A stretch of 49,325 nucleotides of DNA from Thermoanaerobaculia bacterium (GCA_036277075.1 DASUNQ010000108.1:1-49325), one strand, 5' to 3'; counted from the first letter of the stretch, positions 4,186 to 40,050 are shown. The notes: a model not told the origin generated them from the letters alone. Program-made: numbers and translations.

Positions 4186-4204
4186 GCTGCTAGGGTTCTA
4201 TGAC

Positions 4205-5246: not shown

Positions 5247-5281
5247 CTGCCCATCAGTCCTCCTTCGCTACGATTTGCGCC

Positions 5282-9532: not shown

Positions 9533-9538
9533 TTTCGG

Positions 9539-17700: not shown

Positions 17701-18170
17701 TCTCGACCCATCTCTTCCTGGATCGCCTGGTCGAGCAGGTACCTGTGAACAAGTACGCCCGCTTGGCTATCGATCGGACCCTTTCGACAATCGTAATGGC
17801 ATTGTTATGGGATCTCGCCCGCGATCCTTTGCTGCGAGCGCCATCCAATGGTATTCGCTACACGCGCGATTTTCGACCTTGGTGGATCAGTGGGGCGGCT
17901 GATATTCAGCCGCGCCTCGCGGAGCGCTTACGCCGCGCGCTCCGATCAGCGGTCCCCGAGGTGGCTGATAGCGGGCTCGAGGCCCGGCTGGTCCGTTGGG
18001 GTGAAGAGCGCTGGGAAAGGCACGAGCTTCCTTCGCTTCAGTCCTTCCGAAGCCGGCTCGTCAAGGACTGCTTTGCCATGCGCGTCCTGACGAGCCTACG
18101 GGACGTTGACGAACCGGCTACATTCGGTGCCGATTCCCGCCATGGGCCGGCCTTCGAGGCCCTTCGCTGA
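14718..18170 (+). CDS. drmA: DrmA-like SF2 DExH helicase
   Basis: Motif I FPTGGGKTEAYLG, motif II LVIQDELH, motif VI YIQSTSRAGR. It sits immediately upstream of a DUF1998 gene, the DISARM core arrangement. Confidence 0.8.
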   Translation: MSSIVIPRAVPPIASALISDVVGQGQQNRLECSVLRAIIARVVERLSNRAGERMAPPWNPVQQVRIGVLRPVEADEARGAVDGSRIGIDFVARSTEGIELLDLEIDVSFALYQPLWPTRLEVLEAARREGDEEAGVGSTGAAQGRHDLRLPITEAWQRSNVFATGLRLGVPVNGTHAGPELANALDAAVRDAVSVHFGRSDAARPFASPGRTVPLSALNTDERYAEALRARVDGAWMPQIPAARLHAFVEEMPNGNLLVSVSLVNQTQPREGDRLQDLNLYDARIEARVVAGGHLEPQRFHLAPDDYRQEDLAEIIGHGRGCVAISAADDGVATETLPLHIQRVVRHRTEHLPELSWSKLDDDPFPILSQVEDAMRAYLREWDAFLPGLGPEARLASERDRNDFDAETRRFAGGRALLGDDAELLRAFRLANRVFARAGAARGHTSWRPFQLVYLIEHLAAVAARRHRHRADLLEELKSVDVLWFPTGGGKTEAYLGLIVVALFYDRFRGKDRGTTALLRFPLRMLSAQQLDRVLRVLTVADDVRHAERIAGAPFELGYLVGGGNTPNALRYEQGWWPGMANAERLTESDRRRHRLIAGCPFCGAKDAVRLAADAIRYRLLHKCTACNAELPLHVSDDEVYRYQPAVIVSTVDKVVGLAHFGEFTSFAHGPAGRCPDHGYFVFGGCGAEGCTRAVRELERVTGWHDPVPTLVIQDELHLVAEELGVFAAHFESLLAEIQCAGPSGLPPKILAASATIEGFDDQVRQVYGRRPRRFPSPGFERRWSFYTLETPDVRRAFLGVMPTGGGTSRVEIAGRIQVELVRAVQDLEDDPSPLRIDAEAALGRVPLDDELRTLLFDYEVSLGYVNRRADGARMSDDLRSLDRQLEAESQDGLRHELLTGDVPITELASAIAQIEHARPTDLRRERLRALVGTSVLSHGVDLERLNLMTMTGMPATIADYIQSTSRAGRAHAGLVVTVFDHFALREASTFSHFLSTHLFLDRLVEQVPVNKYARLAIDRTLSTIVMALLWDLARDPLLRAPSNGIRYTRDFRPWWISGAADIQPRLAERLRRALRSAVPEVADSGLEARLVRWGEERWERHELPSLQSFRSRLVKDCFAMRVLTSLRDVDEPATFGADSRHGPAFEALR

Positions 18171-18186
18171 CCTGGGAGAGGAAGTT

Positions 18187-20001: not shown

Positions 20002-20010
20002 CTCTTGGCC

Positions 20011-22060: not shown

Positions 22061-23650
22061 CTACGACTGGTCACTGGTATCCTGGCGTAGAGCGAATGCA
22101 GAATTCTGCTTGATCCAGCTTTCGATCTCTTCAATGATGTGTCTCAACGCAGATTCTCTTTGCGAACTTGCCGACTGCGGCAGGTTTGTACCGCTTCGAC
22201 CTTCGGCCCGTTGAAGGTCACTAGGAGTATTTTTCGCATAGTCAGTGAGCGATACAAAGGGACGAAACAGCTCAACAGAGAGGTTTTTGCCGGTCACGAT
22301 ACGGTTCGACGTCGCAAGCTGGGCAAGTGCGCGTTTGTGGTCGGCTGTCGCCGTCTCGTAGCTTAACCAGGCCGCGTTTGCCAGTTCGACCACTTCTCGC
22401 ACCTCTTCCAGCTTCTTTTCGGCCTCGCTGCTTGGAAGTGCGAGCTTCTCTTCAAGGTCTCGCCGTTCAAGGTATAGGCTCGCCTTGCTCTTTTCGAGGA
22501 GTTCCTTCTCCAGCATGCCGTCGAGGTACGCGTCGACGAGGCGGTCAAGCAGGGATTGGATCTGTCCGAGCCGCAGGCGCCGCGCCTCTTGCTGCTCTTC
22601 CCATTCGCTGAGGAACCCCGCGCGCCGCTCTTCCATTCGCTGGAACAGGTACGCTAGTTGGTCGCTTGAGAGCATGAGGCGCCGAAGCTCTCGCTGGATA
22701 GTCTCATCCACGGCTTCTTCGCGCACGCACTTCGTCGGACATCCCTGAGTGTGGCAGCGGTAGTAGACGTGTCCCTTCTGGAGCTCGCCGCGGAGTAGCC
22801 TGCCGCAGTGGCCGCAGGAGAGCAAGCGCCGGAAGACGAATTCGTGTCGGATCACTTTCCGGTGCGTTCGCCCCTGGAGGCGATCCTGCACACGTCGAAA
22901 CAGAGCGACCGGAATGAGCGGCCGGTGTATGCCCGGGAACGTCTCGCCCGTCTTGCGCAAGCTGATGAGGCCGCAGTAGAAGGAATTGTTGAGGATAGTC
23001 GAGAGACCGTTGCGCGTCACCTTGTGTCGGTTGCGGTTCCGCAAGCCTCGCCGGTACATCTCGTCGGCGAGCGCCAGGAGGCTGAATTGGCCGGAGTCGT
23101 ACAGCTCGAATGTCTTTCGCACGTGCGGGGCGGTGTTTGCATCAGGCACCTTCGGCTTGCCCTTCCCGCAGTCGAGGTAGCCGAGCGGCGCCTGGAGCGG
23201 GTAGAGCCCCTGCTTCAGGCGTCCGTAGAAACCCTTGAGCGTTTCCTCCCGCAGGTTGCGGATGAAGTCCGCGGCGACAATGGCCTGAATGTCGGCAGCG
23301 AGCCGGCCGCCACGAGTATGGAGGTCAAGCGACTCGTTCACGAAGTGGACCGCAATCCCAGCGTCGATGAGCTCGCCGAGGTCTGCCCAGTCGCGGAGAT
23401 TCCTGGCGCTCCGGTCGATCTTGTGGATGACGAGCCCCTGTGCTTTACCCTGGCGCAACAGCCGGAGCATCTTGGTGAACTTTGGTCGGCCTCGCTTTGC
23501 GGCCGTCTTTGTCTCCTCGAACCACTCGATGATGGAGAGCCCATGGGTCCCGGCGTAGCGCGCGATGGCATCGTGCTGCTCCTCAGGCGACACGCCCTCT
23601 TCCTTCTGCTTGGGCGTTGAGACACGTATGTATGCGAAGCAACGCGTCAT
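22061..23650 (-). CDS. Large serine recombinase (second copy, divergent from the terminal one)
   Basis: N-terminal resolvase motif AYIRVSTPKQ, IHKIDRSARN, recombinase domain, zinc ribbon CGHCGRLLRGELQKGHVYYRCHTQGC, then a coiled-coil segment. Confidence 0.9.
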   Translation of the reverse strand: MTRCFAYIRVSTPKQKEEGVSPEEQHDAIARYAGTHGLSIIEWFEETKTAAKRGRPKFTKMLRLLRQGKAQGLVIHKIDRSARNLRDWADLGELIDAGIAVHFVNESLDLHTRGGRLAADIQAIVAADFIRNLREETLKGFYGRLKQGLYPLQAPLGYLDCGKGKPKVPDANTAPHVRKTFELYDSGQFSLLALADEMYRRGLRNRNRHKVTRNGLSTILNNSFYCGLISLRKTGETFPGIHRPLIPVALFRRVQDRLQGRTHRKVIRHEFVFRRLLSCGHCGRLLRGELQKGHVYYRCHTQGCPTKCVREEAVDETIQRELRRLMLSSDQLAYLFQRMEERRAGFLSEWEEQQEARRLRLGQIQSLLDRLVDAYLDGMLEKELLEKSKASLYLERRDLEEKLALPSSEAEKKLEEVREVVELANAAWLSYETATADHKRALAQLATSNRIVTGKNLSVELFRPFVSLTDYAKNTPSDLQRAEGRSGTNLPQSASSQRESALRHIIEEIESWIKQNSAFALRQDTSDQS

Positions 23651-26945: not shown

Positions 26946-27077
26946 CGGAAAGTAGCCTGCGATCCCTAGTGCCTTGGAGAGGGCACGTAAAGCTTCCCCG
27001 GCACAACCGAGGGAGCTTTGGCGCGCGTCAGGAAACGCCGCCTTTGCGGCAATCAGGAGTACGCGCACGATGGGCGA

Positions 27078-28277
27078 ATGCACTCCGATGATCGCATCAC
27101 CTACTTCGCCCGCACCAACCACCGCAACACGCGGACGCTTTTTGGCATTCGCAGGCGCGATCGGCTCATGCACCTCTACACCATCGGCCGGACCGGCACC
27201 GGCAAGTCCACACTCCTGAAGACCCTCGTCCTCCAGGACCTTGAGGCCGGAGAAGGCCTGGCGCTCTTCGATCCGCACGGGGATCTGGTCGAGGAGGTGG
27301 TGAAGCTCGTACCCGCCGCCCGGCGGGCTGACGTCCTGTACCTCAATGTCCCGGACAGCCGCTGCCGCTTCTCCTTCAACCCCTTCGCCGGCATCCCGGC
27401 CGGCAAGCGGGCGCTCGCGGCCGCCGGCATGGTCGAAGTCTTCAAGAAGCTCTGGCCGGACGATTGGGGACCGCGGCTTGAGCACCTGCTGCGCAACGTC
27501 GTCTTCACCCTCCTCGAGACGCCGGGAGCAAGCCTGGCCGACATCCCGCGACTCCTGGCCGACCGGGACTACCGACGAGGAGTCGTCGCCGGCGTCACCA
27601 ACGAAGAAGTCCGCGCCTTCTGGCGTGACGAGTACGAACGCTACAGCCCCGGTATGCGGGGAGTGGTGGTAGCGCCCCTGCAGAACAAGGTGGGAGCGTT
27701 CCTGACGGACCCGCGGCTGCGGGAGATCCTCGGAGCCGAGCAGTCCAGCTTCGATCTGCGGCAGGTCATGGATAAGGGACGGATACTCCTGGTGAACCTC
27801 GCCCGCGGGAGAATCGGCGAGGGGCCGGCGGCGCTCCTGGGATCGCTCTTGGTCTCCTGCCTGAGCCTCTCGGCTTTCGGGAGAGCAGAGCGGCCGCAGG
27901 AAGGCCGCCGCGACTTCTACGTCTACCTCGACGAGTTCCACACCTTCGCCACCCTCACCTTGGCGACCATGCTCTCCGAGCTGCGGAAGTACCGCGTAGG
28001 ACTTGTACTCGCCCACCAGTATCTCTCCCAGCTTGAGACGGAGGTTCGGGATGCAGTCTTTGGGAACGCAGGGACATTCATTGTCTTTCGGGTCGGAGCC
28101 CTTGACGCGCCAATCGCTGCCCGCGAGCTCGCCCCGACGTTCGCGCCAGAGGACTTGATCTCCCTGCCCAACTACAACATCTACCTGCGGCTGATGATCC
28201 GCGGTCAGCCAAGCAAGCCGTTCAGCGCGACAACGGAGAGATGGGAACATCTTGACGGCTACGCGCACCTCTGCTAA
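27078..28277 (+). CDS. TraD/VirD4-like DNA-translocase ATPase (T4SS-DNA_transf family), core only
   Basis: ITYFARTNHRNTRTLFGIRRRDRLMHLYTIGRTGTGKSTL (Walker A), FYVYLDEFH (Walker B), LVLAHQYLSQL. Paralogous to the central part of 34544..37561. Confidence 0.8.
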   Translation: MHSDDRITYFARTNHRNTRTLFGIRRRDRLMHLYTIGRTGTGKSTLLKTLVLQDLEAGEGLALFDPHGDLVEEVVKLVPAARRADVLYLNVPDSRCRFSFNPFAGIPAGKRALAAAGMVEVFKKLWPDDWGPRLEHLLRNVVFTLLETPGASLADIPRLLADRDYRRGVVAGVTNEEVRAFWRDEYERYSPGMRGVVVAPLQNKVGAFLTDPRLREILGAEQSSFDLRQVMDKGRILLVNLARGRIGEGPAALLGSLLVSCLSLSAFGRAERPQEGRRDFYVYLDEFHTFATLTLATMLSELRKYRVGLVLAHQYLSQLETEVRDAVFGNAGTFIVFRVGALDAPIAARELAPTFAPEDLISLPNYNIYLRLMIRGQPSKPFSATTERWEHLDGYAHLC

Positions 28278-28452: not shown

Positions 28453-30444
28453 ATGGCAACGACTCCTCTGCAAGTCGTACGCCTCACACAGCTCGACGCA
28501 GTAAACGTCCGCCAGTTCGGTGGCAAGGTCTCGAACCTTGCCCAGCTCACTATGGCGGGTGTCGACGTTCCTCCAGGTGTGGCACTCGGCAAGGAAGTGC
28601 TTGCCCATTTTCTCAGCGAAAATGGAATCAATTTGCCGGCCCTCGAACAACTTCATAATCGAGGGATGATTTTCCTGGAGTCCGCGCTTCAAGAAGCTCA
28701 GGTTTGGCAAGCAAGAATCGTGGATACAATTCATAAGGGGGATCTACCGAGCGCGATTTCGGATGCTTTGCTTGAGAACCTCGACAATCCCGACCGAGTG
28801 TTTGCCGTTCGGTCCTCTTGTGTAGTGGAAGATTCAGCATCTACGTCCTTTGCAGGACAGTATGTAACTGTGCTCGCTGTTTCTGGACGCGAAGCAATCC
28901 TGGATGCAATCCGTTCATGTTGGGCATCTCAGTATGACGGACGAGTACTTACTTATGCTATTAGTCGGCGTGGCATGCCTGTTCTAGTGCCTTCAATGGC
29001 AGTGCTTGTCCAGGAAATGTTAACCCCCAGCTTTGCTGGCGTTTGCTTCACCGAGGGTCCGACACCTCGTACGAAAGAGTTGATGATCATTGAAAGTGTG
29101 GTGGGGGTCGGCGAGGCTCTTGTCAGCGGAGAGCGTACGCCCGCACATTTCGAGCTAAGGCAGGACGGCGAACTGCACCGAGCGATGGTTCCTGCAGATG
29201 GAAAGACTCCTTCCGAAGCACAAATCGCGAGTATCGCCGCGGAGGCGCGGAAGATCGCCGGCTTCTTCGGCCGCCCCCAAGACGTCGAGTGGGCGCTTGT
29301 GGACGACAGACTCTTCATACTTCAGGCAAGGCCGATTACCGTTCTCGGAGGCGAGCGGGCTGCGACAACTCTAACTTTGCTAGGGGGCAGGACGGAAGAA
29401 GTTGGGCGACCTGCGACTGTCGAGACTAGTTCAGCGGTACTACGAGATGATCTCCATGAATGGCTGATATCACGGGTTGATCCACTGGTCTACCGGGGCT
29501 GTTCGTACCTCCTATCCAAGCAGCAACAGGATGGTTCCTGGAAGATTGAGGGCCATCCCGAATGGGATTGCGTTGCCACGGCATTGATGGTGAAGCTGCT
29601 TATCGATGGTGGTGTTCCAGGTTCGCTGGCTTGGTCGCTTCCAAGGGGGGATCACGAATCACCCGTGCTTGGGGTACAGGCTGCTGTGGCCTGGCTGGCG
29701 AGAAATGTTGGGGATGACGGAGGTTGGGGCACCGATTTGTGGGATTCATGCCAGGTATTGCGCGCGTTAGTTCGATCGAGCTTTAGCTTAGATGAGCCGA
29801 TTTTAGCCAAGGCTTTCTCTCACGTTATGGATCAATTAGCGAGGGGCGTGACCAGTGTTGCAGATCAGGAGTGGGCTGGTGCGGGCTTCGTCGCCGTCGC
29901 ATTGCAGCTACTTTCCGAAAGTGGTAGATCTCCTGCGGTCAAAGATCTCGTAACGCTTCTTCTTGATACTCAGACTGCCGATGGAGACTTTCCGGCGCTC
30001 CATGCCAGTGGTGATCGTGTTCCTTCCGAGTGGCATACAGCGCAGGTCATAACTAGTCTTATGCAGTGCTGTGCTGACGATGCACACGCGGCGACTGCTG
30101 CAAGCAAAGCACTGGAATGGCTTCTTTCCCGGCAACACTCAGACGGCTCCTGGGGGGTGAGCGCTGGACCATATGCCCACTATAATACGTTTTTCACCTC
30201 CTATGCTGTGATAGCTCTTTCTAGTGCGGGCTATTCACCCGCTACTGAGCAACTCGCGAGGGCGGTTCGGTGGTTACGCGGAAAGCAGGTGGCCTCTGGA
30301 GCATTCGGCGACATCGCTTCCTCGCTGATGGCAATGACAGCATTTCAAGTGGTGTATGGGCCATTGTTTGCTCTCGAACTCCCTTTACCCCTTTTTCTGC
30401 GAGTCCAACATTGTCTCAGCACCATCGACCAACTAGCACACTAG
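28453..30444 (+). CDS. Fusion protein: PPDK_N-type ATP-grasp (PEP synthase / rifampicin-phosphotransferase-like) domain plus alpha/alpha-toroid prenyltransferase/squalene-cyclase-like repeat domain
   Basis: N-terminal blocks FAVRSSCVVEDSASTSFAGQY, MAVLVQEML, GVGEALVSGERTP, DVEWALVDDRLFILQARPIT. C-terminal repeats SKQQQDGSWK, GDDGGWG, TQTADGDF, RQHSDGSWG, KQVASGAFG. ATG 28453 follows GAGAGAA. Confidence 0.8.
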   Translation: MATTPLQVVRLTQLDAVNVRQFGGKVSNLAQLTMAGVDVPPGVALGKEVLAHFLSENGINLPALEQLHNRGMIFLESALQEAQVWQARIVDTIHKGDLPSAISDALLENLDNPDRVFAVRSSCVVEDSASTSFAGQYVTVLAVSGREAILDAIRSCWASQYDGRVLTYAISRRGMPVLVPSMAVLVQEMLTPSFAGVCFTEGPTPRTKELMIIESVVGVGEALVSGERTPAHFELRQDGELHRAMVPADGKTPSEAQIASIAAEARKIAGFFGRPQDVEWALVDDRLFILQARPITVLGGERAATTLTLLGGRTEEVGRPATVETSSAVLRDDLHEWLISRVDPLVYRGCSYLLSKQQQDGSWKIEGHPEWDCVATALMVKLLIDGGVPGSLAWSLPRGDHESPVLGVQAAVAWLARNVGDDGGWGTDLWDSCQVLRALVRSSFSLDEPILAKAFSHVMDQLARGVTSVADQEWAGAGFVAVALQLLSESGRSPAVKDLVTLLLDTQTADGDFPALHASGDRVPSEWHTAQVITSLMQCCADDAHAATAASKALEWLLSRQHSDGSWGVSAGPYAHYNTFFTSYAVIALSSAGYSPATEQLARAVRWLRGKQVASGAFGDIASSLMAMTAFQVVYGPLFALELPLPLFLRVQHCLSTIDQLAH

Positions 30445-30462
30445 TGTTGGAGCGCCGACAGA

Positions 30463-31560
30463 ATGACCGACTTTAGCCCGCCGCCACTCTCTTCCCTTGT
30501 TCCTGTACTTGCCGCACTTCCAGATGAGCTTCTGCCGTGGATCACGGAAAAGCACGTAGCATATCTAGACGACCGCATACATAAGATCGAGGTTTTGACC
30601 GACTATTTGGCTGGATGCGATGCCGTCGCGGGGCAGCGAGAAGAGTTTGTTACTTTCGTCGATAGTTGGACTCAGCAAGAGCCCGTGGATCTTCCTGCAT
30701 ATATGGGAGAGTATCGCCATCGCTTTGCGACGGTACGGAGTTCGGTCGAGGCCCAATGTGAGCGGATCATGCTCGATGACGCTCTTTGGGCTTCATCGTC
30801 AGAGCTTCTTCGTTTCTGGCGGGACTTTGCTCTGGTAAACGAGACCGATAGTTTGCATGGAATGTTTCTCACATCCGGTCGTTGGTACGTCAACGTCATG
30901 TTGCCGATTGTACGAGAGTTGGTGTTCTGCACTCTCCCGGACGAAATCCATGGAGAAGAGCGGCCACGTCTCGCCTATTGGATCGCACGGCGAGTGATTA
31001 CGCCCCGCTTCGCCGAAGCTCCGAGTGATTATGCGCCTGCGCTAGAGCGCCGTTTCGCAGCTCTCTTCATTCCAGTACTTCAGTTCTATGATCGAAAGCT
31101 CTTGTTCCTCTTTCAGCAGATGGAGAAGCTGCCTCTGCCTGCCGAGTACACTCTCGTAGACTTTGTTCGCGATGTCGGAACGAAGTCAACCTTATATCGC
31201 GATCTTCTCGAAGCTGGCATTTACCCACCCTTTGCCTGGCACGAGCTGCACGCGAGTCGTCGGCCGCGCCGACCTGGGCGCGCGTATGAGGAGGCAGTAC
31301 GGCCATTGCTGTCGACTGTTTCTCCTCCTTTGCGGTCACGCGTCGACCAGGCGCTCGCCTTTCTATCTTACATGAAGGACTTTGAGCTCAACTATAATAA
31401 TTACAACTATAAAGGTAAGTTTGGCTTGATCTCCAAGTGGTTCTACTGGCGTACAAACCAGGCGCTGCCAGAGGCAGAGCGAGCGCCATTCCTTGACGCA
31501 ATCCTGGGCGATCGCTTTTTTGAGGCACTTGACCATCTGGAACAGGTTTGGAGACCTTAG
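30463..31560 (+). CDS. Hypothetical, predicted all-helical protein
   Basis: 365-aa ORF, 18 nt after the upstream stop. No motif recognised. Confidence 0.6.
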   Translation: MTDFSPPPLSSLVPVLAALPDELLPWITEKHVAYLDDRIHKIEVLTDYLAGCDAVAGQREEFVTFVDSWTQQEPVDLPAYMGEYRHRFATVRSSVEAQCERIMLDDALWASSSELLRFWRDFALVNETDSLHGMFLTSGRWYVNVMLPIVRELVFCTLPDEIHGEERPRLAYWIARRVITPRFAEAPSDYAPALERRFAALFIPVLQFYDRKLLFLFQQMEKLPLPAEYTLVDFVRDVGTKSTLYRDLLEAGIYPPFAWHELHASRRPRRPGRAYEEAVRPLLSTVSPPLRSRVDQALAFLSYMKDFELNYNNYNYKGKFGLISKWFYWRTNQALPEAERAPFLDAILGDRFFEALDHLEQVWRP

Positions 31561-31572
31561 AAGGAGTGATGT

Positions 31573-31902
31573 ATGGCATACACAATCGTCGGGATTAGTG
31601 CATCGCCCGGAAGCGCGCGCGGACCCGCAAGGTGGGTACAAACGGCGACAGATCTAGAAGAATTCCAGATCGGTGATATCTTGCTTGCTAAGATGACCTC
31701 GCCAGATTGGGGCCAGATCTTCCAGAAGGCTGGAGCCGTTGCTACTGAACAAGGCGGAATGCTGTGTCATGCTGCAATCGTGGCTAGAGAGGAGGGAATC
31801 CCAGCGGTTGTCGGGCTTGGCCCGGACCTCGCACGCATCACCAATGGAATGATTGTGGCAGTCGATGGAGACGAGGGCATTGTCGAGGTAGACGAAAGAT
31901 AG
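31573..31902 (+). CDS. Stand-alone PEP-utilising-enzyme mobile (phospho-histidine swivel) domain protein
   Basis: AAGGAG RBS. GGMLCHAAIVAREEGIPAVVG is the swivel-domain His signature. Only 109 aa. Confidence 0.85.
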   Translation: MAYTIVGISASPGSARGPARWVQTATDLEEFQIGDILLAKMTSPDWGQIFQKAGAVATEQGGMLCHAAIVAREEGIPAVVGLGPDLARITNGMIVAVDGDEGIVEVDER

Positions 31903-31950
31903 CGCCAAGGTATCGAATAGGCTAGAATAAACCCAATGAGGGGTACAAAC

Positions 31951-32520
31951 ATGGCAAACGTGACGATACTATACGAGGGGTATGTGAAGGAAGGAGATGA
32001 GGGCGACGTTGTCCGAAACACGGCCTGTTTAGTTACGGACGGCCGAGTCAAGATGATCGTTGACCCCGGCCTGGTCGAGTCGCCAGCGCTTCTACTAGAC
32101 GCCTTGAAGCGCCAACAGTTGACGCCAAAGGATATCACCCACGTGTATGTGACTCATTATCACATGGACCATGTGAGATATGTGGGACTTTTCGACGCCG
32201 CTCGAGTCATTGACTATAAATATTTCTATGACGGAGAGGTTTGGGGAGAACACCTTGGCGATGGCTATCAGATCACGGATAGCATCAGGATCCTGCACAC
32301 GCCAGGGCACACTATGGACGATTCTGCGTTGCTGGTGCAGACGACTGAGGGCGTGGTGGCAATTTCACACGTATGGTGGTTTCCGGATCGAACGCCGGAA
32401 GAGGATCCAATGGCGAGCGATCAGCAGCTACTCGAGGAATCGAGGAAGCGCGTGGAGGCAGCGGCAGATTGGATCATCACGCCTCACGGCGGGAAGCTAG
32501 ACGTGCGGGGTGGCAAGTAA
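31951..32520 (+). CDS. MBL-fold metallo-hydrolase
   Basis: HxHxDH motif THYHMDHV, later HTPGHT. ATG 31951 follows GAGGGG (alternative ATG 31936). Confidence 0.8.
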   Translation: MANVTILYEGYVKEGDEGDVVRNTACLVTDGRVKMIVDPGLVESPALLLDALKRQQLTPKDITHVYVTHYHMDHVRYVGLFDAARVIDYKYFYDGEVWGEHLGDGYQITDSIRILHTPGHTMDDSALLVQTTEGVVAISHVWWFPDRTPEEDPMASDQQLLEESRKRVEAAADWIITPHGGKLDVRGGK

Positions 32521-32532
32521 GAGGCGCGAGTA

Positions 32533-33240
32533 TTGGCTTCTCAAGAACGACCCGCTGGTAGCCCACAGCGAAAACGTCAGCGATCCCTAGTTGTAACTGG
32601 AGCGACTTCTCCCATTGGGAGGGCGATATTTCTATGGGCAAAGGGTAACCGTTTTCAGGCTATTGGTACAGTACGGAGCAGCCGGCGTGGCGGCGGTGGA
32701 GATTCAAATGACTCCTTTCTTTACTGTGACTTTGGCGATCCTGAATCTGTGACAAATTGTGTGAAAGCCATCCATTCAGTGGCTCCAGAGGTCGATGTCC
32801 TAGTCAACAATGTATCAGCTTGGCACCAAGGCGGCTTGCTTAGTCAGGAACCGATTGCTATCCGACAGGATATAGACATCACTTTAGGAGGCACTCTCGA
32901 CTTCACGAGGCGCATGTTACCATCACTTCTCTCTTGCGGCGGCCTTGTTATCAATCTGTGCAGCACCGCTGGAACACAACGTCATTGGTCTTTGAATACA
33001 ACCTACGTCACGGCAAAGGCTGGGCTCGCTGTGTTCGGTCACGCGCTTCGACGTGAGCTAGCGGGCTCAGGGTTGCGAGTGACAAATCTTCACCTTGGAG
33101 CCGTCGACGATGGGGACGCCGGAACTAAAGGTTGTCTACCCATAGCGGCAATCGTGCAAGTCATATCGCTAGTGGTTAACCTCCCACGCGCGGCCATAGC
33201 CGATGCGGTTATCCTCACTCCTGCGTGTCGCGACTATTGA
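32533..33240 (+). CDS. Short-chain dehydrogenase/reductase (SDR)
   Basis: VTGATSPIGRAI cofactor motif, NNVSA, YVTAK (YxxxK). TTG start preceded by AAGAGG. Confidence 0.8.
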   Translation: MASQERPAGSPQRKRQRSLVVTGATSPIGRAIFLWAKGNRFQAIGTVRSSRRGGGGDSNDSFLYCDFGDPESVTNCVKAIHSVAPEVDVLVNNVSAWHQGGLLSQEPIAIRQDIDITLGGTLDFTRRMLPSLLSCGGLVINLCSTAGTQRHWSLNTTYVTAKAGLAVFGHALRRELAGSGLRVTNLHLGAVDDGDAGTKGCLPIAAIVQVISLVVNLPRAAIADAVILTPACRDY

Positions 33241-33851
33241 GCCGTATACGAGTGAGCGGTCAGCCGCCCATTATTGCGCTTGTGGGCCTGACGACAGCTG
33301 GCAAAACCACGGTTTCGCAACTTCTCGAAGCGCGGAGCCTGGCACGTCGGCTGATCATGCTGACAACAAGGCCGCCGCGGTTGGATGATCCTACAGGTTG
33401 GTTCGATTACGTGACAGAGATTGTTCCACGGACTGGTGATATTGTCTTTGAGGGGTGGGGACAGTCCCGGTACTGTGTCCGTGGGGAGTCGATACGGCGC
33501 CTGAGGGAGCTCGGCAACTGGCCGATTCTAGACCTCGGTGACGTTGAGCCCGCGTTGTGGGTTAAAGAACGTTACCATCCTACTGTTATCGTAATGGTTG
33601 CGCGTGAGGTTACGGCTGAGAGAGTGCAAACTGTCTGCAAGGCGCGCGGGATGGCGAGAAATGCGATTGAGGAGCGAGTCCGTGGACTGGAGGCTGATCG
33701 ACATGATCTCGCGGCGCATGTTTGGGCCGTCGACTTTGTGCTAGAGAATAGCGGGTCAGTGGAGGAGACGATGCGGAATATCGACGCACTCGTACAGATG
33801 ATCTCACAATCGATGGCGGAGAGTGATGAAGTAGGACGGACCAGGGCATGA
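33225..33851 (+). CDS. Guanylate-kinase-like P-loop kinase
   Basis: Walker A GLTTAGKTT and a TTRPPR...G..Y segment as in the guanylate kinase/PhnN family. Overlaps both neighbours. Confidence 0.65.
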   Translation: MSRLLSRIRVSGQPPIIALVGLTTAGKTTVSQLLEARSLARRLIMLTTRPPRLDDPTGWFDYVTEIVPRTGDIVFEGWGQSRYCVRGESIRRLRELGNWPILDLGDVEPALWVKERYHPTVIVMVAREVTAERVQTVCKARGMARNAIEERVRGLEADRHDLAAHVWAVDFVLENSGSVEETMRNIDALVQMISQSMAESDEVGRTRA

Positions 33852-34531
33852 TGCAACTACGCGGGTCGGTAATCAGTCACTGGCATATTCTGTTAGAAGA
33901 ATTCTCCACTTCAACTCAAGAGTTCTACAAGGCGGTTGAGCAGGCTGTACGCGAGCGCAATCTGCCGGAGGTCGAGCTCTCCCGTGTCCTCTTCAAAGAG
34001 GGCGGGATTGGAACAGCACAGCGCGAGTACCTCCGCGTCCAGCGAAAGCGCGTTGCCTTCGACATCTGCTCGGCGCCGTACGGCAACGGCCACTTCTTCT
34101 CCTGGTGGCTCGCCAAGATCCCTGCAAAGTACGGGCTCCTCATCGTGGCAGCGGCCATCCTCGTCGGGCTGCCGGTGTGGGCGATCTTCGCGACCATCCT
34201 CACGAAGATCTTTGAGGGCGCCTGCTTCAGCTTCGTTCTCGGCCCGCTCATGTTCTTGCTCGGCATTCCCGTAATCCTTCTCGGGCTTGGCTCCCTGGTC
34301 GAGCGCGGCATGATCGGGGACGAGGAGTGGGTACTCTCTATCCCGTGGGTTGGCTACCTCTACGCGGTTGTCTTCAACCCCACGACCTACTACCGCCAGG
34401 ACACGGCCATGATGTTCCGCGACTCGCTCCGATCAGCGGTGAACGAAGTCATCAACGGCCTGCGGACGGAGAAGGGACTGCGGGGCCTCGGCGAGCAGGA
34501 ACTGGCGCCCGAGGGTGAAGGGACGGCATAG
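33848..34531 (+). CDS. Integral membrane protein
   Basis: ATGA overlap with the kinase stop. Hydrophobic helices LLIVAAAILVGLPVWAIFATILT and FSFVLGPLMFLLGIPVILLGLGSLV. Confidence 0.6.
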   Translation: MMQLRGSVISHWHILLEEFSTSTQEFYKAVEQAVRERNLPEVELSRVLFKEGGIGTAQREYLRVQRKRVAFDICSAPYGNGHFFSWWLAKIPAKYGLLIVAAAILVGLPVWAIFATILTKIFEGACFSFVLGPLMFLLGIPVILLGLGSLVERGMIGDEEWVLSIPWVGYLYAVVFNPTTYYRQDTAMMFRDSLRSAVNEVINGLRTEKGLRGLGEQELAPEGEGTA

Positions 34532-34543: not shown

Positions 34544-37500
34544 ATGGAGAGCCTGGTAGAGAAGCGCGGCCGCCACTTCTATGCCTGGGAGCGGCGGGGC
34601 CGCGGGTGGCAGAGCTATCCGTATCCCGTCCCGCTCGCGCCGCCGTTCAGGCCATTCCGGTATCTCCGCGAGACGACCGTCGCTGCCGTTGACGACGGCA
34701 GGCACCCCACTCCGTTCTCGGCAATCCTCGAACGCTGGTTCGGCGGCCGACAGGAGCCGCCGCCTGCTCCGGTGGAGGAGGGAGAGCCGGAGCCCGAGCC
34801 GCGCCAGGACGACAGCGAGCTCATCGAGGTACAGCTCCTCCCGCCCGAGGATCTCTCCGTCACTCCCGCCCTGAGCCAGGCCTGGCTCAGGAGCCTCGCG
34901 TCGCTTCGGGCGCCGGCTTCGTTTGAGCTGGTGGCGACCGGCGGCACGGTTGCAGTGCTTCTCTCCTGCCGCAGTCAGGACGCGCCGCTCCCCTTCGCGC
35001 AGCTTCGGGCGTTCTTTCCACAGGTCGAGGTGCGGGAGGGCCAGGACCTTCTCCTGTCCGCGTGGGAGCAAGTCGCGGAGGGGACCTTCTCCGTTCTGGA
35101 GTTCGGCCTGGCCCACGAGTTCATGCTCCCGCTCGCACAAGGCAAGAGCTTCTCGCCCGACCCCCTCACCTCGATCGTGGCCGCGCTCGCCGAAGCCAAG
35201 GCCGGCGAGTTTGCGCTCCTGCAGGTTCTCTTCGAGAGAGTGTCGGCGCCGTGGCCCGAGAGCATCGTGCGGTCGGTGCAGACGCCTTCGGGCGAGCCGT
35301 TCTTTGCCGACGCCCCGGAGGTCACAAGTCTGGCCCGCGAGAAGGCATCAGCACCGCTCTTCGCTGTGGCGGTTCGCGCAATGGCGCTGGCTCCGAGCGG
35401 CGAGCGCCTGTGGACGCTCCTTCGCGGCATCGGCGGTGCGCTCTCCTCAGCCACACAGGGCGGCAACGAGCTGGTGCCTCTTGGCCAGGGCGATCTTGAT
35501 GACCTTCTCGGCGACGTGCTGTTTCGCACGACGCACCGCTCCGGCTGTCTTCTATCGCTTCCCGAACTTTCCACACTCGTACATCTGCCTTCCGCGTCGG
35601 TCCAGGCCATCGTCCGGGAGACCGGCCGCACCAAGGAAGTACCACCCGAAGCCCGCGACTCCGGCGTTGTCCTTGGGTATGGCGTCCACCAGGGCAAGCG
35701 AACCGAAGCCCGGCTCTCCGACGACGCGCGCATGCGCCACGTGCACGTCATTGGCGCACCAGGCACCGGCAAGTCAACGCTCCTGGTGTCCCTGATCCTT
35801 CAGGACATTGCGGCAGGCAACGGCGTTGGCGTCCTCGATCCGCACGGGGACCTCGTTGATGAGGTGCTCGCTCGGCTGCCGGAGGAGCGGGCACAGGACG
35901 TCATCCTTTTTGACCCCGCCGATCCCGAGTACGTCGTCGGCTGGAACATGCTCTCCGCCAGCTCCGAGGCGGAGAAGGAGATGCTCGCCTCAGACCTGGT
36001 GGCCGTCTTCCGCCGGCTCTCCACCTCCTGGGGCGACCAGATGACGGCGGTTCTCGCCAACGCGATCGGCGCCTTCCTGGAGTCACGCGATGGCGGGACG
36101 CTCCTCGACCTCCGGCGCTTCCTGGTTGATCCCGGCTTCCGCAAGCGCTTCCTCGAGACGGTGCCTGACGCCTTGGCGCGGGAGTTCTGGACGACGCACT
36201 TCCCGATGCTCAAAGGCTCGCCGCAGGGGCCGATCCTTACCAGGCTCGACAGCTTGCTGCGGGGGCGCCTGGTGCGCGGGGTGGTGACAGCGACCGAGCG
36301 GCCGCTCGACTTCCGCCGCGTGGTTGACGACGGACGGATCTTCCTGGGCAAGCTCTCGCAGGGCGCGATCGGCGAGGAGAACGCCTCCCTCCTCGGGTCG
36401 CTCCTGGTCTCCAAGTTCCACCAGGTCTCGCTCCTGCGGCAGGACCAGGCCGAAGCTGAGCGTCGCCCGTTCTTCCTCTACGTTGACGAGTTCCATGGCG
36501 TTGCCACGCCCTCGATGGCCGCGCTGTTCTCCGGCGCCCGGAAGTACCGGCTCTCGGTCACCGTGGCCCACCAGGACCTCTACCAGCTCCACAGCCGAGT
36601 GCCGGACGTCGAGCGGGCGGTGCTCGCCAACGCCTACACCCGAGTGTGCTTCCGCCTCGGAGATGAAGACGCGCGTGCACTCGCCCACGGGTTCTCCTTC
36701 TTCACGGCTGACGACCTGGGGAACCTCGGCACGGGAGAAGCGGTCTGCCGAGTCGGCAGGAAGGAGCAGGACTTCAACCTGGAGACAATCAGACCGGAGC
36801 CGTTGACTGCGGCGGCCGCGCGCGAGCAGCGGCGGGCGATGCGGATGGCTTCGCTCAAGAAGTGGGGTGTTCTGCGACCTGCGGAGGTCGAGCCGCCGCC
36901 GACTGTTGCCGATCAAGCGCGGGAGCCACGGCCTCCGCAGGAAGCTCGGACCCCTGAACGTCAGGGGGTGGAGCCTCCGGCGACCCCCAGACCGGCACGG
37001 GAGGCAAAGCCACCCGCGCCCCAAGTGCCGAGCGCTGCCGCACCGCATGCCGAGCCTCGGCGTCTGGGCAAAGGCGGCGCCGAACACACGTACCTGCAGG
37101 AGCTCATCAGTAGGTGGGCGGTGGAACGGGGTTTCCGTGCAGCGGTGGAGGAGCAGATCGCCGGCGGCCGCGAGAGCGTTGACTTGGCCCTCCACCGCGG
37201 CCAGTTCTCAGTCGCCTGCGAGATCAGTGTCACGACACCTCTGGATTACGAGGTCGGAAACGTCGAGAAGTGCCTGGCGGCCGGTTTCCCGATGGTAGCG
37301 GTTGTGTCGCTCAAGAAGGCGCGGCTTGAAAAGCTAGACAAGCTCCTGACCCGGACCTTGTCCGCGGACCAGCGCAGTCGCGTGCACGTCTTTACACCGG
37401 AGGAGCTTCTTGCCTGGCTGGCGGGTCAGCCGGCAGCGGAGGAGACGAGCACAGTTGCCGGGTACAAGGTCAAGGTTCGCTACCGGGAGGCGCCGGAGGC

Positions 37501-37561
37501 TCGGAAGCGGGTCGCCGAAATCCTGGCGCGCAGCATGAGGCGGCTCAAGAAGGACGAGTAG
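34544..37561 (+). CDS. TraD/VirD4-like ATPase with a large N-terminal domain, Pro-rich linker and C-terminal PD-(D/E)xK-like nuclease domain
   Basis: Walker A VIGAPGTGKSTL, Walker B FFLYVDEFH, VTVAHQDLYQL. The C-terminal GKGGAEHTYLQ...ESVDLAL...VACEISV pattern is suggestive of a restriction-endonuclease-like fold. Confidence 0.8.
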   Translation: MESLVEKRGRHFYAWERRGRGWQSYPYPVPLAPPFRPFRYLRETTVAAVDDGRHPTPFSAILERWFGGRQEPPPAPVEEGEPEPEPRQDDSELIEVQLLPPEDLSVTPALSQAWLRSLASLRAPASFELVATGGTVAVLLSCRSQDAPLPFAQLRAFFPQVEVREGQDLLLSAWEQVAEGTFSVLEFGLAHEFMLPLAQGKSFSPDPLTSIVAALAEAKAGEFALLQVLFERVSAPWPESIVRSVQTPSGEPFFADAPEVTSLAREKASAPLFAVAVRAMALAPSGERLWTLLRGIGGALSSATQGGNELVPLGQGDLDDLLGDVLFRTTHRSGCLLSLPELSTLVHLPSASVQAIVRETGRTKEVPPEARDSGVVLGYGVHQGKRTEARLSDDARMRHVHVIGAPGTGKSTLLVSLILQDIAAGNGVGVLDPHGDLVDEVLARLPEERAQDVILFDPADPEYVVGWNMLSASSEAEKEMLASDLVAVFRRLSTSWGDQMTAVLANAIGAFLESRDGGTLLDLRRFLVDPGFRKRFLETVPDALAREFWTTHFPMLKGSPQGPILTRLDSLLRGRLVRGVVTATERPLDFRRVVDDGRIFLGKLSQGAIGEENASLLGSLLVSKFHQVSLLRQDQAEAERRPFFLYVDEFHGVATPSMAALFSGARKYRLSVTVAHQDLYQLHSRVPDVERAVLANAYTRVCFRLGDEDARALAHGFSFFTADDLGNLGTGEAVCRVGRKEQDFNLETIRPEPLTAAAAREQRRAMRMASLKKWGVLRPAEVEPPPTVADQAREPRPPQEARTPERQGVEPPATPRPAREAKPPAPQVPSAAAPHAEPRRLGKGGAEHTYLQELISRWAVERGFRAAVEEQIAGGRESVDLALHRGQFSVACEISVTTPLDYEVGNVEKCLAAGFPMVAVVSLKKARLEKLDKLLTRTLSADQRSRVHVFTPEELLAWLAGQPAAEETSTVAGYKVKVRYREAPEARKRVAEILARSMRRLKKDE

Positions 37562-37694
37562 AGAGCGGGTAGCCTCCCCGGCAGATTCCTCCGCCTTGAG
37601 CGCCTGTCACCTGGCGAGTACTGTGGCTGCAGAGTCGTTCTTCGCATCCCACCAACAACCCGCCGTGGTATACGGCAGCTACAGAGAGGAGCCA

Positions 37695-39389
37695 ATGCCA
37701 CAACACCACCCTGACAGGACCGGAGACAAGCGAGTCGGCATCTGGATTCGGGTCTCAACCGAGGACCAGGCCAGGGGCGAAAGCCCCGAGCACCACGAGG
37801 CGCGAGCGCGGATGTACGCCGAGGTCAAGGGCTGGACGGTGGTCACCGTCTACCACCTCGAAGCCGTCAGCGGGAAGTCCGTCTTAGGACATCCCGAGGC
37901 TCAGCGCATGCTCGCCGACCTGCGCTCCCGCCACATCTCCGGCCTCATTTTCTCGAAGCTCGCCAGGCTGGCCCGCAACACCCGCGAACTCCTGGACATC
38001 TCGGATCTCTTCCAAGAGCATCGCGCGGACCTCATCTCGCTCCAGGAGTCGATCGACACCTCGACTCCCGCGGGTCGCTTCTTCTACACCATGCTCGGAG
38101 CGATGGCGCAGTGGGAGAGGGAGGAGACCGCCGACCGAGTGGCCGCCTCCGTGCCGATCCGGGCCAAGCTCGGGAAACCCTTGGGCGGAAAGACACCCTA
38201 CGGGTACCACTGGCAAGCCGGCAAACTCGTCCCTCACCCGCAAGAGGTGCCGATCCGCAAGCTTATGTACGAGCTCTTCCTCACCCATCGCAGGGTCAAG
38301 ACCGTCGCCCGGCTCCTCAATGAGGCTGGATACCGGACTAAGACCGGAGGACTCTTCGGACCCACGACCGTCAAGCGCATCCTGCGCGACCCCACGGCCA
38401 AGGGCCAGCGCCGCGCGAACTTCACCAGGAACCTGGGCGGCAACCGCCGGCGCTGGGTCCTCAAGCCGCAGGAGGACTGGGTGTGGTCCGAGGTCGAGCC
38501 GATCGTCTCCGAGGAGATCTGGGAGCGGGCCAACGCCCTGCTGGAAGGGCGCAAAGAGAAGCGCCCGGGGCGGAGGCCGGTCCACCTCTTCACGGGAGTG
38601 GCCTTCTGCCATTGCGGCGCCAAGCTCTACGTGCCCTCCAACACCCCGAAGTGGGTCTGCTACAAGTGCCGCAACAAGATCCCGATCACGGACCTCGACC
38701 GGGTCTTCGAGGAGCAGCTCAAGGACTTCTTCCTCTCCGAGGAGAAGATCGCGGAGGCGCTTGCCGAGTCTGACCGGACGCTCGTAGAGAAGCGCGAGCT
38801 TCTCTCGGTCCTCACGGCAGAGCGGGAGCGACTTTCCGGAGAGATGGAGAAGGTCTACCGCCTCTACATGAGCGACGTGCTCTCGCCGGAAGGCTTCGGC
38901 GAGCGGTACCGCCCTCTGGAAGAGCGGGTGCGACAGCTTGGGGAGGAGATCCCTCGCCTTCAAGGGGAGATCGACTTCCTGACCATCGAGCACCTCTCAA
39001 GCGAGGAGGTCGTCTCCCAAGCCAGAAGCCTCTACGGCCGCTGGCAGGAGCTTCCCTTCGAGGAGCGGCGGGCGATCGTCGAGACCATCGTCGAACGGAT
39101 CACCGTCAGGAGGGACGAGGTCGAAATCGACCTCGCCTACTTTCCCTCTCCGGGAGAAGTAATAGCAGAAAGGGACCGTTCGCGGACGAGTACAGCGACA
39201 CCCTCGGCTTCTATGTCCGCGGGCCGCACCGGACGGTCCTCTACGTCCCGGACACCGACTCCTGGCGCGCCTGGCCGCGGCCGCTGCCGGAGCTGCTGGC
39301 GGGCGTGGACGAGGCGCTCCTCGACGGGACCTTCTACTCGCTCGACGAGCTGCCCGGACGAGACGTCGCCTCGATCGGCCATCCGCTGA
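37695..39389 (+). CDS. Large serine recombinase (island integrase); native sequence to 39186, then read-through into host DNA
   Basis: GAGAGGAG RBS. IWIRVSTEDQ catalytic motif, FSKLARLARN, zinc ribbon CHCGAKLYVPSNTPKWVCYKCRNK, coiled coil, ITVRRDEVEIDLAY. After 39186 the frame continues about 67 codons out of frame across the host gene fragment. Confidence 0.9.
   Translation: MPQHHPDRTGDKRVGIWIRVSTEDQARGESPEHHEARARMYAEVKGWTVVTVYHLEAVSGKSVLGHPEAQRMLADLRSRHISGLIFSKLARLARNTRELLDISDLFQEHRADLISLQESIDTSTPAGRFFYTMLGAMAQWEREETADRVAASVPIRAKLGKPLGGKTPYGYHWQAGKLVPHPQEVPIRKLMYELFLTHRRVKTVARLLNEAGYRTKTGGLFGPTTVKRILRDPTAKGQRRANFTRNLGGNRRRWVLKPQEDWVWSEVEPIVSEEIWERANALLEGRKEKRPGRRPVHLFTGVAFCHCGAKLYVPSNTPKWVCYKCRNKIPITDLDRVFEEQLKDFFLSEEKIAEALAESDRTLVEKRELLSVLTAERERLSGEMEKVYRLYMSDVLSPEGFGERYRPLEERVRQLGEEIPRLQGEIDFLTIEHLSSEEVVSQARSLYGRWQELPFEERRAIVETIVERITVRRDEVEIDLAYFPSPGEVIAERDRSRTSTATPSASMSAGRTGRSSTSRTPTPGAPGRGRCRSCWRAWTRRSSTGPSTRSTSCPDETSPRSAIR
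39166..39186 (+). other. attR junction: island arm CAGAAAGGGACCG-TTCGCG plus core GA (39185-39186)
   Basis: The host gene resumes at 39187 (CGAGTACAGCGAC = ...EYSD). The arm is the inverted partner of 4807-4819 (12/13 complementary). Confidence 0.7.
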
Positions 39390-39562: not shown

Positions 39563-39586
39563 GCCAAACCTTCATGCGGTAGGGCC

Positions 39587-39835
39587 AGGAACAGTGCCCG
39601 GACGCTCCGGGAACAGTTCCCCACGGTTAGGAACAGTGCCCGGACGGTCCGGGAACAGTTCCCAACGGCCAGGAACAGTGCCCGGACGCTCCGGGAGCAG
39701 TTCCCAACGGCCAGGAACAATGCCCGGACGCTCCGGGAACAGTTCCTAACGGCCAGAAACAGTGCCCGGACGCTCCGGGAACAGTTCCCAGCGGCTGGGA
39801 ACAGTGCCCGGATGCTCCGGGAGCAGTTCCGAGCC
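39587..39835 (+). repeat. Six direct copies of a 42-bp palindromic unit
   Basis: AGGAACAGTGCCCGGACGCTCCGGGAACAGTTCCCAACGGCC-type units start at 39587, 39629, 39671, 39713, 39755 and 39797. Each contains GGAACAGTGCCCGG-ACGCT-CCGGGAACAGTTCC. Confidence 0.9.
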
Positions 39836-40050
39836 GTCCGGGCACAGTTCCTGAGCGCGGGGAACTCTTCCCGATCCGTCCGGGCACTGTTCCTGAGGGC
39901 TGGGAACTCTTCCCGGTCCGTCCGGGCACTGTTCCTGAGGGCTGGGAACTCTTCCCGGTCCGTCCGGGCACAGTTCCTGAGGGCTGGGAACTCTTCCCGG
40001 TCCGTCCGGGCACAGTTCCCGAGAGCTGGGAACTCTTCCCGGTCCGTCCC
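39836..40050 (-). repeat. Five (plus one truncated) copies of the same 42-bp unit in inverted orientation
   Basis: GTCCGGGCAC(T/A)GTTCCTGAGGGCTGGGAACTCTTCCCGGTCC units start at 39836, 39878, 39920, 39962 and 40004, with a truncated copy at 40046. GTCCGGGCACTGTTCC is the exact reverse complement of GGAACAGTGCCCGGAC in the left array. Confidence 0.9.

Follow-up and report, generated by a model that had tools for sequence, protein, structure and literature searches.

A putative three-way split dikinase with a hydrolase partner on an integrative island of a Thermoanaerobaculia bacterium: a candidate module for small-molecule modification

What is modified by seven tightly packed genes that sit in the lowest-G+C part of a genomic island between two TraD/TrwB-like ATPase genes, and do all seven belong to one system? 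The question is raised by a 49,325-nucleotide stretch of DNA from a Thermoanaerobaculia bacterium (GCA_036277075.1 DASUNQ010000108.1:1-49325; the window, at its full length), in which the seven genes, here called g1–g7, occupy positions 28453–34531. A reading of the sequence alone (the sequence-only reading) had taken them as a single candidate system, built on a split phosphotransfer enzyme of the phosphoenolpyruvate (PEP) synthase type with a substrate-holding toroid domain and completed by a metallo-β-lactamase (MBL) hydrolase, a short-chain dehydrogenase/reductase (SDR), a guanylate-kinase-like protein and a membrane protein. In this study, only g1–g4 (28453–32520) were found to be a conserved unit. 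We propose that this unit is a three-way split 'X, water dikinase' of the PEP-synthase/Rph superfamily (Rph, rifampicin phosphotransferase) which, together with a hydrolase, modifies or inactivates a small molecule in conflict, a proposal that we believe and doubt in equal measure, mechanism and role being taken jointly.

Comparison with Pfam identified in g1 a PPDK_N domain (PF01326, 2e-53, residues 31–314) followed by toroid repeats of the SQHop_cyclase/Prenyltrans/TED families (1e-14 to 1e-7), and in g3 the mobile domain of PEP-utilizing enzymes (PF00391, 1.9e-23), which aligns with the swivel region of the PEP synthase, Rph and PigC models. The fusion of an ATP-grasp domain to a toroid recurs in about 35 protein clusters, and across 33 full-length g1 homologues of the same architecture the nucleotide-site motifs GGK, VRSS, SFAGQ, PQD-EW and RPIT are conserved and agree with the Rph-like consensus. 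The predicted phospho-acceptor of g3, His66 (codon 31768–31770), lies in the motif GGMLCH, and this swivel histidine, in the form GG[MI][LT][CS]H, is invariant in 15 of 15 homologues over all three architecture types considered below. By their ATP-grasp motifs and their GGxxxH histidine, g1 and g3 can be placed in the superfamily of PEP-utilizing His-swivel dikinases; the split enzyme of the sequence-only reading, with its ATP-grasp domain in g1 and a free-standing swivel protein, has thereby held, and Pfam likewise upheld its domain calls for the toroid, for the MBL protein g4 and for the SDR g5. The PEP/pyruvate barrel domain PF02896 was not matched by any of g1–g7 in Pfam; a PEP-synthase role in central metabolism was rejected on account of this absence, and the scores against the NCBIfam PEP-synthase models are 152–195 bits, compared with cut-offs of 598–883. 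To our knowledge, all characterized ATP-grasp and swivel proteins without this barrel (Rph, PigC/RedH/HapC, PpsAB/CreHI/HpeHI and GWD) are dikinases that act on small molecules or glucans.

Between these two proteins is encoded g2, which the sequence-only reading did not single out and which is the most distinctive and best-conserved component of the module. Scans of g2 against Pfam, NCBIfam, PHROG and PADLOC gave no match, and neither did a sequence search of the PDB with the g2 profile. The family comprises 46 clusters among 5.8 billion proteins, all of about 365 amino acids; a profile search of 1.84 billion representative proteins found 14 members, and a scan of 185,579 genomes, one per species, found g2 in four, namely metagenome-assembled genomes of a member of the Thermoanaerobaculaceae, of two Planctomycetota and of a Rhodoferax. 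Chryseobacterium isolates likewise carry g2, and the identity to their proteins is 51% for g2 versus 39% for g1, that is, g2 is the better conserved of the two. The alignment of the family has 49 invariant columns, with numerous invariant His, Asp, Arg, Lys and Asn residues. The AlphaFold2 (AF2) model of g2 is all-helical (predicted local distance difference test, pLDDT, 93; predicted template-modelling score, pTM, 0.91), and a Foldseek search of the PDB and BFVD with this model found no match, the best E values being 0.25–0.3 with template-modelling (TM) scores below 0.2. The gene for g2 stands directly upstream of the swivel gene in every locus, distant variants included. On the strength of this adjacency, of its position in a gene order like that of the Rph domains, of its conservation and of its invariant charged residues, g2 is the leading candidate to provide the second (acceptor) active site of the dikinase.

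The comparison with related loci, here designated by L numbers, is based on about 15 independent loci, with tblastn of the window proteins run against 23 loci of which several are copies of the same contig. In all related loci on long enough contigs, g1, g2 and g3 are adjacent and in the same order, an arrangement not attributable to chance, and a hydrolase gene adjoins this trio in 13 of 13 loci with flanking sequence, upstream or downstream according to the locus, so that the hydrolase supposed from the sequence is a genuine partner. In the window this partner is g4, which matches Lactamase_B (Pfam, 1.3e-10), carries the metal-binding motif HxHxDH as HYHMDH, belongs to the MBL fold and has MBLAC1 (3e-13) and the AiiA lactonases (1e-5) as its best PDB relatives. 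In the tblastn set g4 was found only in the closest relative, L001/L005, and L001 has this orthologue, 74% identical, at the equivalent position; in L033, too, the trio is followed by an MBL gene, and the MBL type is limited to these loci and the window. Wherever a non-MBL locus has flanking sequence, a gene of the isochorismatase family encoding about 200 amino acids abuts g1–g2–g3, downstream of the trio in L002, L009, L010, L012 and L019 and upstream of it in L003, L006 and L007/L026. An Asp-Lys-Cys triad is invariant in 12 of 12 of these partners, and they are closest to the 'cysteine hydrolase' 3irv of the PDB (1e-50) and to the biuret, RutB and N-carbamoylsarcosine amidohydrolases, which identifies them as Cys-dependent amidohydrolases rather than EntB-type isochorismatases. 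The triad is common to the partners in most related loci and to the isochorismatase-like cysteine hydrolases (BiuH, RutB, N-carbamoylsarcosine amidase and nicotinamidase), although none of the partners reaches an equivalog cut-off. In the window the unrelated MBL-fold g4 takes the role of the isochorismatase-family protein, and this non-homologous replacement suggests that a hydrolytic step is needed.

The weakest profile hits led further, to distant variants designated type II (L027 and L028) and type III (L029 and L030). L027 encodes an isochorismatase, a g2-like protein, a swivel protein, a separate toroid (463 amino acids), a separate PPDK_N protein (350 amino acids) and an EamA transporter, and the same parts are distributed over two strands in L028. 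L029 and L030 encode a TetR regulator, a g2-like protein of about 330 amino acids, a swivel protein, an isochorismatase and a short PPDK_N protein (252–286 amino acids), without a toroid, and an Orn/Lys/Arg-type decarboxylase gene lies downstream in L030. The invariant core of the family is thus the ATP-grasp domain, the swivel, the g2-like protein and the hydrolase, and the toroid is accessory. Because there are distant variants without any toroid, a substrate-holding function of this domain becomes less likely; the constant partner of the swivel is g2. Side by side with these variants, an extension of the module was noted in one subclade, in L010/L025 (11470–14590) and L012 (5819–8901), consisting of a protein of about 170 amino acids, an S-adenosylmethionine (SAM) methyltransferase and a thymidylate-kinase (Tmk)-like protein; the kinase is 64% identical between L010 and L012, which otherwise have different neighbours.

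The toroid itself was modelled by AF2 (pLDDT 89) as an (α/α)6 barrel, the best Foldseek matches of which are single-domain class II terpene cyclases (8pak, MstE and drimenyl-diphosphate synthase; E values of 3e-7 to 3e-5, TM scores of 0.56–0.64), and it contains QW-like repeat motifs. The DxDD acid motif of these cyclases is not conserved at any toroid alignment column, DxD[DE] occurring once, in one of the 33 sequences, and the inner-helix motif at the corresponding place is D428-L-W430-D431-T-C433; an active class II terpene cyclase was therefore rejected despite the matching barrel fold. A thioester domain, the TED match covering residues 518–580 only, was also considered and was rejected in the absence of a CGEQ motif from the toroid half, CGEQ-like strings being present in only six of the 33 homologues and aligned in the ATP-grasp half in all six. 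Invariant residues cluster at the starts of the inner helices (E370-W371, D428-x-W430-D431-T-C433, E473-W474, S525-E-W527-H528-T529 and D620), and from this pattern the cavity is predicted to be acidic and aromatic, with a possible Asp/Cys/His metal site formed by D431 (33 of 33 sequences), C433 (32 of 33) and H528 (33 of 33), which lie at inner-helix starts two repeats apart. A Zn site of Asp, Cys and His residues at the N-termini of the inner helices is the mark of the Zn toroids of the protein prenyltransferase β and LanC types, with which the g1 toroid was compared in this respect.

The likeness of the toroid to MstE and drimenyl-diphosphate synthase, together with matches of g1 and g3 to the PigC and RedH models at 1e-47 to 1e-23, would be in keeping with a biosynthetic enzyme of the PigC/RedH kind, in which the dikinase activates a carbonyl group for a secondary-metabolite condensation, possibly towards a meroterpenoid, and the EamA protein of the type II loci could export the product. 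However, the scores against these models (163–169 bits) lie far under the cut-offs of 1300–1350, no prenyl synthase, polyketide synthase, non-ribosomal peptide synthetase or precursor gene is conserved nearby, and the toroid both lacks DxDD and is dispensable in type III loci; we consider biosynthesis very improbable. Maturation of a ribosomally synthesized and post-translationally modified peptide, such as a lanthipeptide, was rejected because no small open reading frame is conserved beside the trio across loci.

With g1–g4 delimited in this way, the status of the remaining genes can be considered (Table 1). The listing of open reading frames agrees with the sequence-only reading in that seven densely packed genes lie on the plus strand, with intergenic spacings from g1 to g7 of 18, 12, 33, 12, −16 and −4 nucleotides and a further 12 nucleotides from g7 to the TraD-like gene g8. 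Also confirmed were the bracketing by two TraD-like ATPases, g8 matching TrwB_AAD_bind, T4SS-DNA_transf and TraG-D_C in Pfam and both flanking proteins matching mad8 of PADLOC (7.6e-22 for g8 and 5e-15), and the low G+C content, the g1–g7 stretch being the minimum of the window at 53–57% compared with 72–77% in the flanks. The island as a whole has a G+C content of 55–66% within a chromosome of 72–77%, and the module region is its lowest-G+C part. At third codon positions (GC3), however, the genes divide into two groups: g1–g6 have values of 0.46–0.63 (0.46 for g5 and 0.58 for g6), whereas g7 has a value of 0.80, and the range 0.80–0.83 is common to g7, g8, the upstream TraD-like gene and a recombinase gene.

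Table 1. Coordinates of the module, of the genes that follow it and of the flanking ATPase genes in the window.
Feature	Position	Strand	Description
Upstream TraD/TrwB-like ATPase	27018–28277	+	419 aa; backbone; 175-nt gap to the module
g1	28453–30444	+	663 aa from ATG 28453, or 673 aa from TTG 28423
g1, ATP-grasp subdomain	~28513–29364		PEP-synthase/PPDK-type (pyruvate, phosphate dikinase) ATP-grasp
g1, toroid subdomain	~29434–30441		(α/α)6 toroid
g2	30463–31560	+	365 aa, all-helical, family unknown; proposed acceptor-site subunit of the dikinase
g3	31573–31902	+	109 aa, free-standing phosphohistidine swivel domain
g4	31936–32520	+	Small metallo-β-lactamase-fold hydrolase
g5	32533–33240	+	Short-chain dehydrogenase/reductase
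g6	33225–33851	+	Orphan P-loop protein, possible nucleotide-kinase fold
g7	33848–34531	+	227-aa membrane protein
g8	34544–37561	+	1005-aa TraD/TrwB-like ATPase; integrative-element backbone, context only

The view that all seven genes, perhaps with the TraD-like ATPase, act as one system, with the substrate held by the toroid and with the SDR, kinase-like and membrane proteins as obligate parts, is encouraged by the single strand and the tight or overlapping genes; a promoter and terminator scan returned nothing exceeding shuffled expectation, with no convincing terminator inside g1–g7, and the low GC3 that g5 and g6 share with g1–g4 indicates that they are probably co-transcribed cargo which may act on the same compound. 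Nevertheless, the synteny check that the sequence-only reading had called for returned g1–g2–g3 and a hydrolase across about 15 loci and did not return g5–g7 with them. The SDR g5 (adh_short, 2.7e-21 in Pfam, with TGxxxxIG and YxxxK motifs) has no homologue in any related locus by tblastn. The search for homologues of g6 found the window's own protein alone and none in related loci, and g6 is not homologous to the Tmk-like proteins of L010 and L012. The description of g6 as guanylate-kinase-like was an overstatement: beyond a Walker A motif (GLTTAGKTT), it has sub-threshold matches only, to guanylate, dNMP and dephospho-CoA kinases, with 18 bits against the guanylate-kinase model TIGR03263 (cut-off 160), a PHROG guanylate-kinase match that spans the P-loop only, and the Pfam families AAA_18 and Zeta_toxin at E values of at least 0.07. 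The slot after the MBL gene is filled differently in the two nearest relatives, by PDC-S06 in L001 and by a divergent UvrD gene in L033, and the toroid is missing from type III variants.

The membrane protein g7 has the expected hydrophobic block (residues 88–156) and no match in Pfam, NCBIfam, PHROG or PADLOC. By tblastn it was found once among the related loci, in L001, an element from a member of the Thermoanaerobaculaceae, where its homologue (40% identical) lies directly upstream of the g8 homologue (46% identical), some 5 kb away from the module and on the other strand (954–4645, minus strand); the homologue of the upstream TraD-like ATPase is likewise upstream of the module in L001. The backbone-like GC3 of g7 and this conserved g7–g8 pairing assign g7 to the mobile-element backbone together with g8. 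The genes g1–g6 are therefore imported cargo in which only g1–g4 form a conserved unit, and g5 and g6 are lineage-specific additions private to the element of the window that may extend its chemistry. The seven-gene system, of which the co-conservation of g1–g4 stands, is in its full extent largely refuted by synteny and is now improbable. Two further observations concern g8: its C-terminal region of about 150 amino acids resembles, by eye, a PD-(D/E)xK-type nuclease, and the mad8 matches of both TraD-like proteins raise the thought that the g7–g8 pair might be defence-related rather than conjugative.

Known dikinases catalyse the reaction ATP + X + H2O → AMP + Pi + X-P, with a phosphohistidine that swings between two active sites (PMC12167813, PMC4844700). 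With gene content, co-conservation, catalytic motifs and folds established as above, an analogous phosphotransfer route can be envisaged for the module. The ATP-grasp half of g1 would bind ATP and load His66 of g3, the overall products being AMP, Pi and the phosphorylated histidine. Loaded g3 would then dock on g2, which would supply the second (acceptor) active site, and the phosphoryl group would pass there to a small molecule, the toroid of g1 serving as an optional extra binding pocket. The adjacent hydrolase would cleave a bond in the same molecule, either before or after its phosphorylation.

As to the biological role, the most likely one would be either Rph-style detoxification of an exogenous toxin or antibiotic or the processing of a nucleobase-type or amide-type metabolite. 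Inactivation of a small molecule is suggested by the TetR and EamA partners in the distant types, by the precedent of Rph and by the hydrolase types that take part, and the nucleotide-kinase-type neighbours (the Tmk-like proteins of L010 and L012, and g6) point to a nucleotide-like substrate. The window and eight loci were also scanned with Rfam for a riboswitch indicative of the ligand, and none was found. Several considerations weigh against the proposal. The acceptor role of g2 is drawn only from gene order and conservation, with no homology to known dikinase acceptor domains detected, and hhalign of the g2 profile against an Rph-like profile gave a probability of 0.5%, i.e. no relation; alternatively, g2 might have a regulatory or scaffolding function or be an enzyme in its own right. 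It is not obvious that a cysteine amidohydrolase and an MBL protein could replace each other on one substrate, the TetR and EamA partners occur in distant variants only and not in the type found in the window, and the frequent phage-defence neighbours fit an anti-phage role at least as well as detoxification.

The module moves horizontally as cargo of integrative elements and defence islands, and has a patchy spread over Acidobacteriota, Planctomycetota, Betaproteobacteria and Bacteroidota. In the window, L001, L002 and L033 it is adjoined by serine recombinase and TraD-like genes, to which L001 and L002 add Replic_Relax genes; the same cassette as in the window was also recovered on an 8.8-kb contig from run SRR25158523. 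A tblastn search of PLSDB plasmids and INPHARED phages with g2 and a pattern scan of IMG/VR found no match, which sets the module apart from typical cargo of plasmids or phages. In about half of the 14–15 independent loci, known or candidate defence genes are found within 10 kb, a figure that is a count over some 15 loci and not a statistical test. In the window, a DISARM system is encoded on the same island (12354–21969, plus strand), with a 787-residue DrmE_C protein, DrmA (PADLOC, 1.4e-106), DrmB (5e-24) and a 654-residue N6/N4-type methyltransferase, and its GC3 of 0.65–0.69 is unlike that of both the backbone and the dikinase module. PDC-S06 follows the module directly in L001, and the other loci contribute restriction–modification-like Z1/ResIII/methyltransferase genes and an SLFN-like helicase (L002), Detocs-like, dCTP deaminase and radical-SAM genes (L025), an Eco57I-type restriction–modification system (L026), CBASS (L029) and a type I HsdR (L033). 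The Detocs-like pair of L025 (17491–20431, minus strand) consists of a Response_reg and PNP_UDP_1 protein and a TCAD9/Response_reg protein and lies near the module with genes for a dCTP-deaminase-like protein, a radical-SAM protein and nucleotide kinases, forming a dense defence island.

Other features of the island were noted in passing. Two large serine recombinase genes (22061–23650, minus strand; 37596–39389, plus strand) bracket its right half, and in L001 the g7–g8–recombinase block has the reverse orientation with respect to the module, suggesting that cargo was rearranged by a recombinase. Just to the right of a serine recombinase gene, where the G+C content returns to above 72%, two abutting and mutually inverted arrays of a 42-bp unit (39583–40049; 5.9 and 5.1 copies, with arms of 213 nucleotides that are 79% complementary) may mark the right end of the island or be a binding array for a recombinase or regulator. 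A 268-residue open reading frame with a SymE_toxin-like domain (5e-8) is present at 11285–12091 (minus strand), and a SymE_toxin gene also occurs in L001. To its left lies a block of 55–60% G+C (5243–10972) with genes for a Lactamase_B_2 protein, an Ldh_2 dehydrogenase, a phosphotransferase of the APH family and a GFO_IDH oxidoreductase; this left end of the island may carry a separate cargo for modifying small molecules.

The defence neighbours lead to the strongest rival of the proposed small-molecule modification, namely that g1–g4 use a His-swivel dikinase as the basis of a new system against phages or mobile elements, which we regard as possible and as less probable than small-molecule modification. 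On infection, such a system would make a toxic or chain-terminating nucleotide-like compound, or would destroy an essential metabolite or ATP; nearby nucleotide kinases would turn the product into its active form, and g2 would be an enzyme fold not seen before that bears the acceptor site. Besides the defence genes in about half of the loci, the rare and patchy distribution across phyla and the P-loop nucleotide-kinase-type genes beside the module in two unrelated lineages (Tmk-like in L010/L012, and g6) are in agreement with this idea, as is a weak Anti-Pycsar_Apyc1 match of g4 and its orthologues in the precomputed Pfam annotation of the database, a match that was not reproduced in our own Pfam scans of g4. 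However, the kinase-type genes of the two lineages are not homologous to each other, neither a sensor nor a classical effector (such as a nuclease, a TIR domain or a pore-former) is recognizable in the module, the neighbours in several loci are housekeeping genes, the TetR and EamA genes of the distant variants point to small-molecule handling, and the co-location may simply reflect shared cargo hotspots of integrative elements. No model of PADLOC-DB 2.0 matches g1–g7, a partner isochorismatase or a type II g2-like protein, and a literature search for dikinases, isochorismatases or PEP-utilizing enzymes in phage defence, and for the Pfam combination, found nothing relevant; the gene set thus matches no described system, as the sequence-only reading had surmised.

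Phenylphosphate synthase, CreHI and HpeHI phosphorylate phenolic hydroxyl groups, and the module might by analogy serve a catabolic or salvage pathway for a cyclic amide, a ureide or a phenolic compound, in which phosphorylation of a carbonyl or hydroxyl group would be an activation followed by the amidohydrolase step. The kinship of the partner hydrolases to the biuret, RutB and carbamoylsarcosine amidohydrolases, the TetR regulator and transporter of the distant variants and the decarboxylase gene of L030 would suit such a pathway, and the characterized split dikinases are catabolic (PMC12167813). No carboxylase, ring-cleavage enzyme or dehydrogenase is conserved with the module, however; the family is extremely rare and its setting is that of integrative elements with defence genes around it, not that of metabolic operons, and g2 is unrelated to the PpsA/HpeH substrate domain, which is itself homologous to the Rph substrate domain. 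Catabolism is accordingly judged unlikely. In the resulting order, small-molecule modification or inactivation comes first and anti-phage activity second, with catabolism and biosynthesis lower.

The findings bear on a wider enzyme family: His-swivel dikinases have been described in central metabolism, in the phosphorylation of starch, in resistance to rifampicin, in the synthesis of pigments and in the catabolism of phenols. To these, the present family would add a three-way split enzyme, an acceptor subunit of unassigned fold, an obligate hydrolase partner and a life as defence-island cargo. If the module were a true defence system it would bring new chemistry to bacterial immunity, and if it were a true resistance or detoxification module it would be a mobile mechanism by which some compound is inactivated; in either case, g2 is a well-defined and highly conserved orphan fold.

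Among the known systems, Rph (NF041857/NF000283) shares with the module the PEP-synthase-type ATP-grasp domain and the GGxxxH histidine swivel, both being devoid of the PEP/pyruvate triosephosphate isomerase (TIM)-type barrel, and the gene order of the module (ATP-grasp, acceptor, swivel) parallels the domain order of Rph. However, Rph is a single chain of about 865 amino acids, whereas the module enzyme is made up of three proteins, and g2 and the central domain of Rph that binds rifampicin (PF27448 in Rph-like hits) are unrelated. The comparison with rifampicin phosphotransferases made in the sequence-only reading is therefore a fair mechanistic analogy, while membership in Rph fails, the module scoring 162 bits against model NF041857 with its cut-off of 999. 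Split small-molecule dikinases are also known, namely PpsAB, CreHI and HpeHI, and Rph falls within a wide family of small-molecule dikinases (PMC12167813). Like the module, the split dikinases PpsAB, CreHI and HpeHI operate as separate subunits: they have a separate ATP-grasp subunit and a phosphohistidine swivel that shuttles between two active sites; in these enzymes, one subunit of about 70 kDa combines the swivel with an Rph-like substrate domain and works with an ATP-grasp subunit of about 40 kDa (PMC12167813), whereas the module has a stand-alone swivel with a partner of new fold, and an ATP-grasp domain joined to a toroid. PpsAB, CreHI and HpeHI are encoded in catabolic operons, in contrast to the defence-island setting of the module. 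PigC, RedH and HapC belong to the same ATP-grasp/swivel subfamily by their NCBIfam matches and would have in common with the module the ATP-dependent activation of an oxygen of a small molecule, but they are single polypeptides encoded in pigment clusters, and no such cluster is found at the module. The class II terpene cyclases (MstE, the 'squalene-hopene cyclases' 8pak/8paj and drimenyl-diphosphate synthase) share the barrel fold of the g1 toroid, which differs from them in its fusion to a kinase, in the missing acid motif and in its dispensability in distant variants. The catalytic logic of the module is thus a known one, and what is new is the acceptor subunit, the organization of the subunits, the partnership with a hydrolase and the genomic setting.

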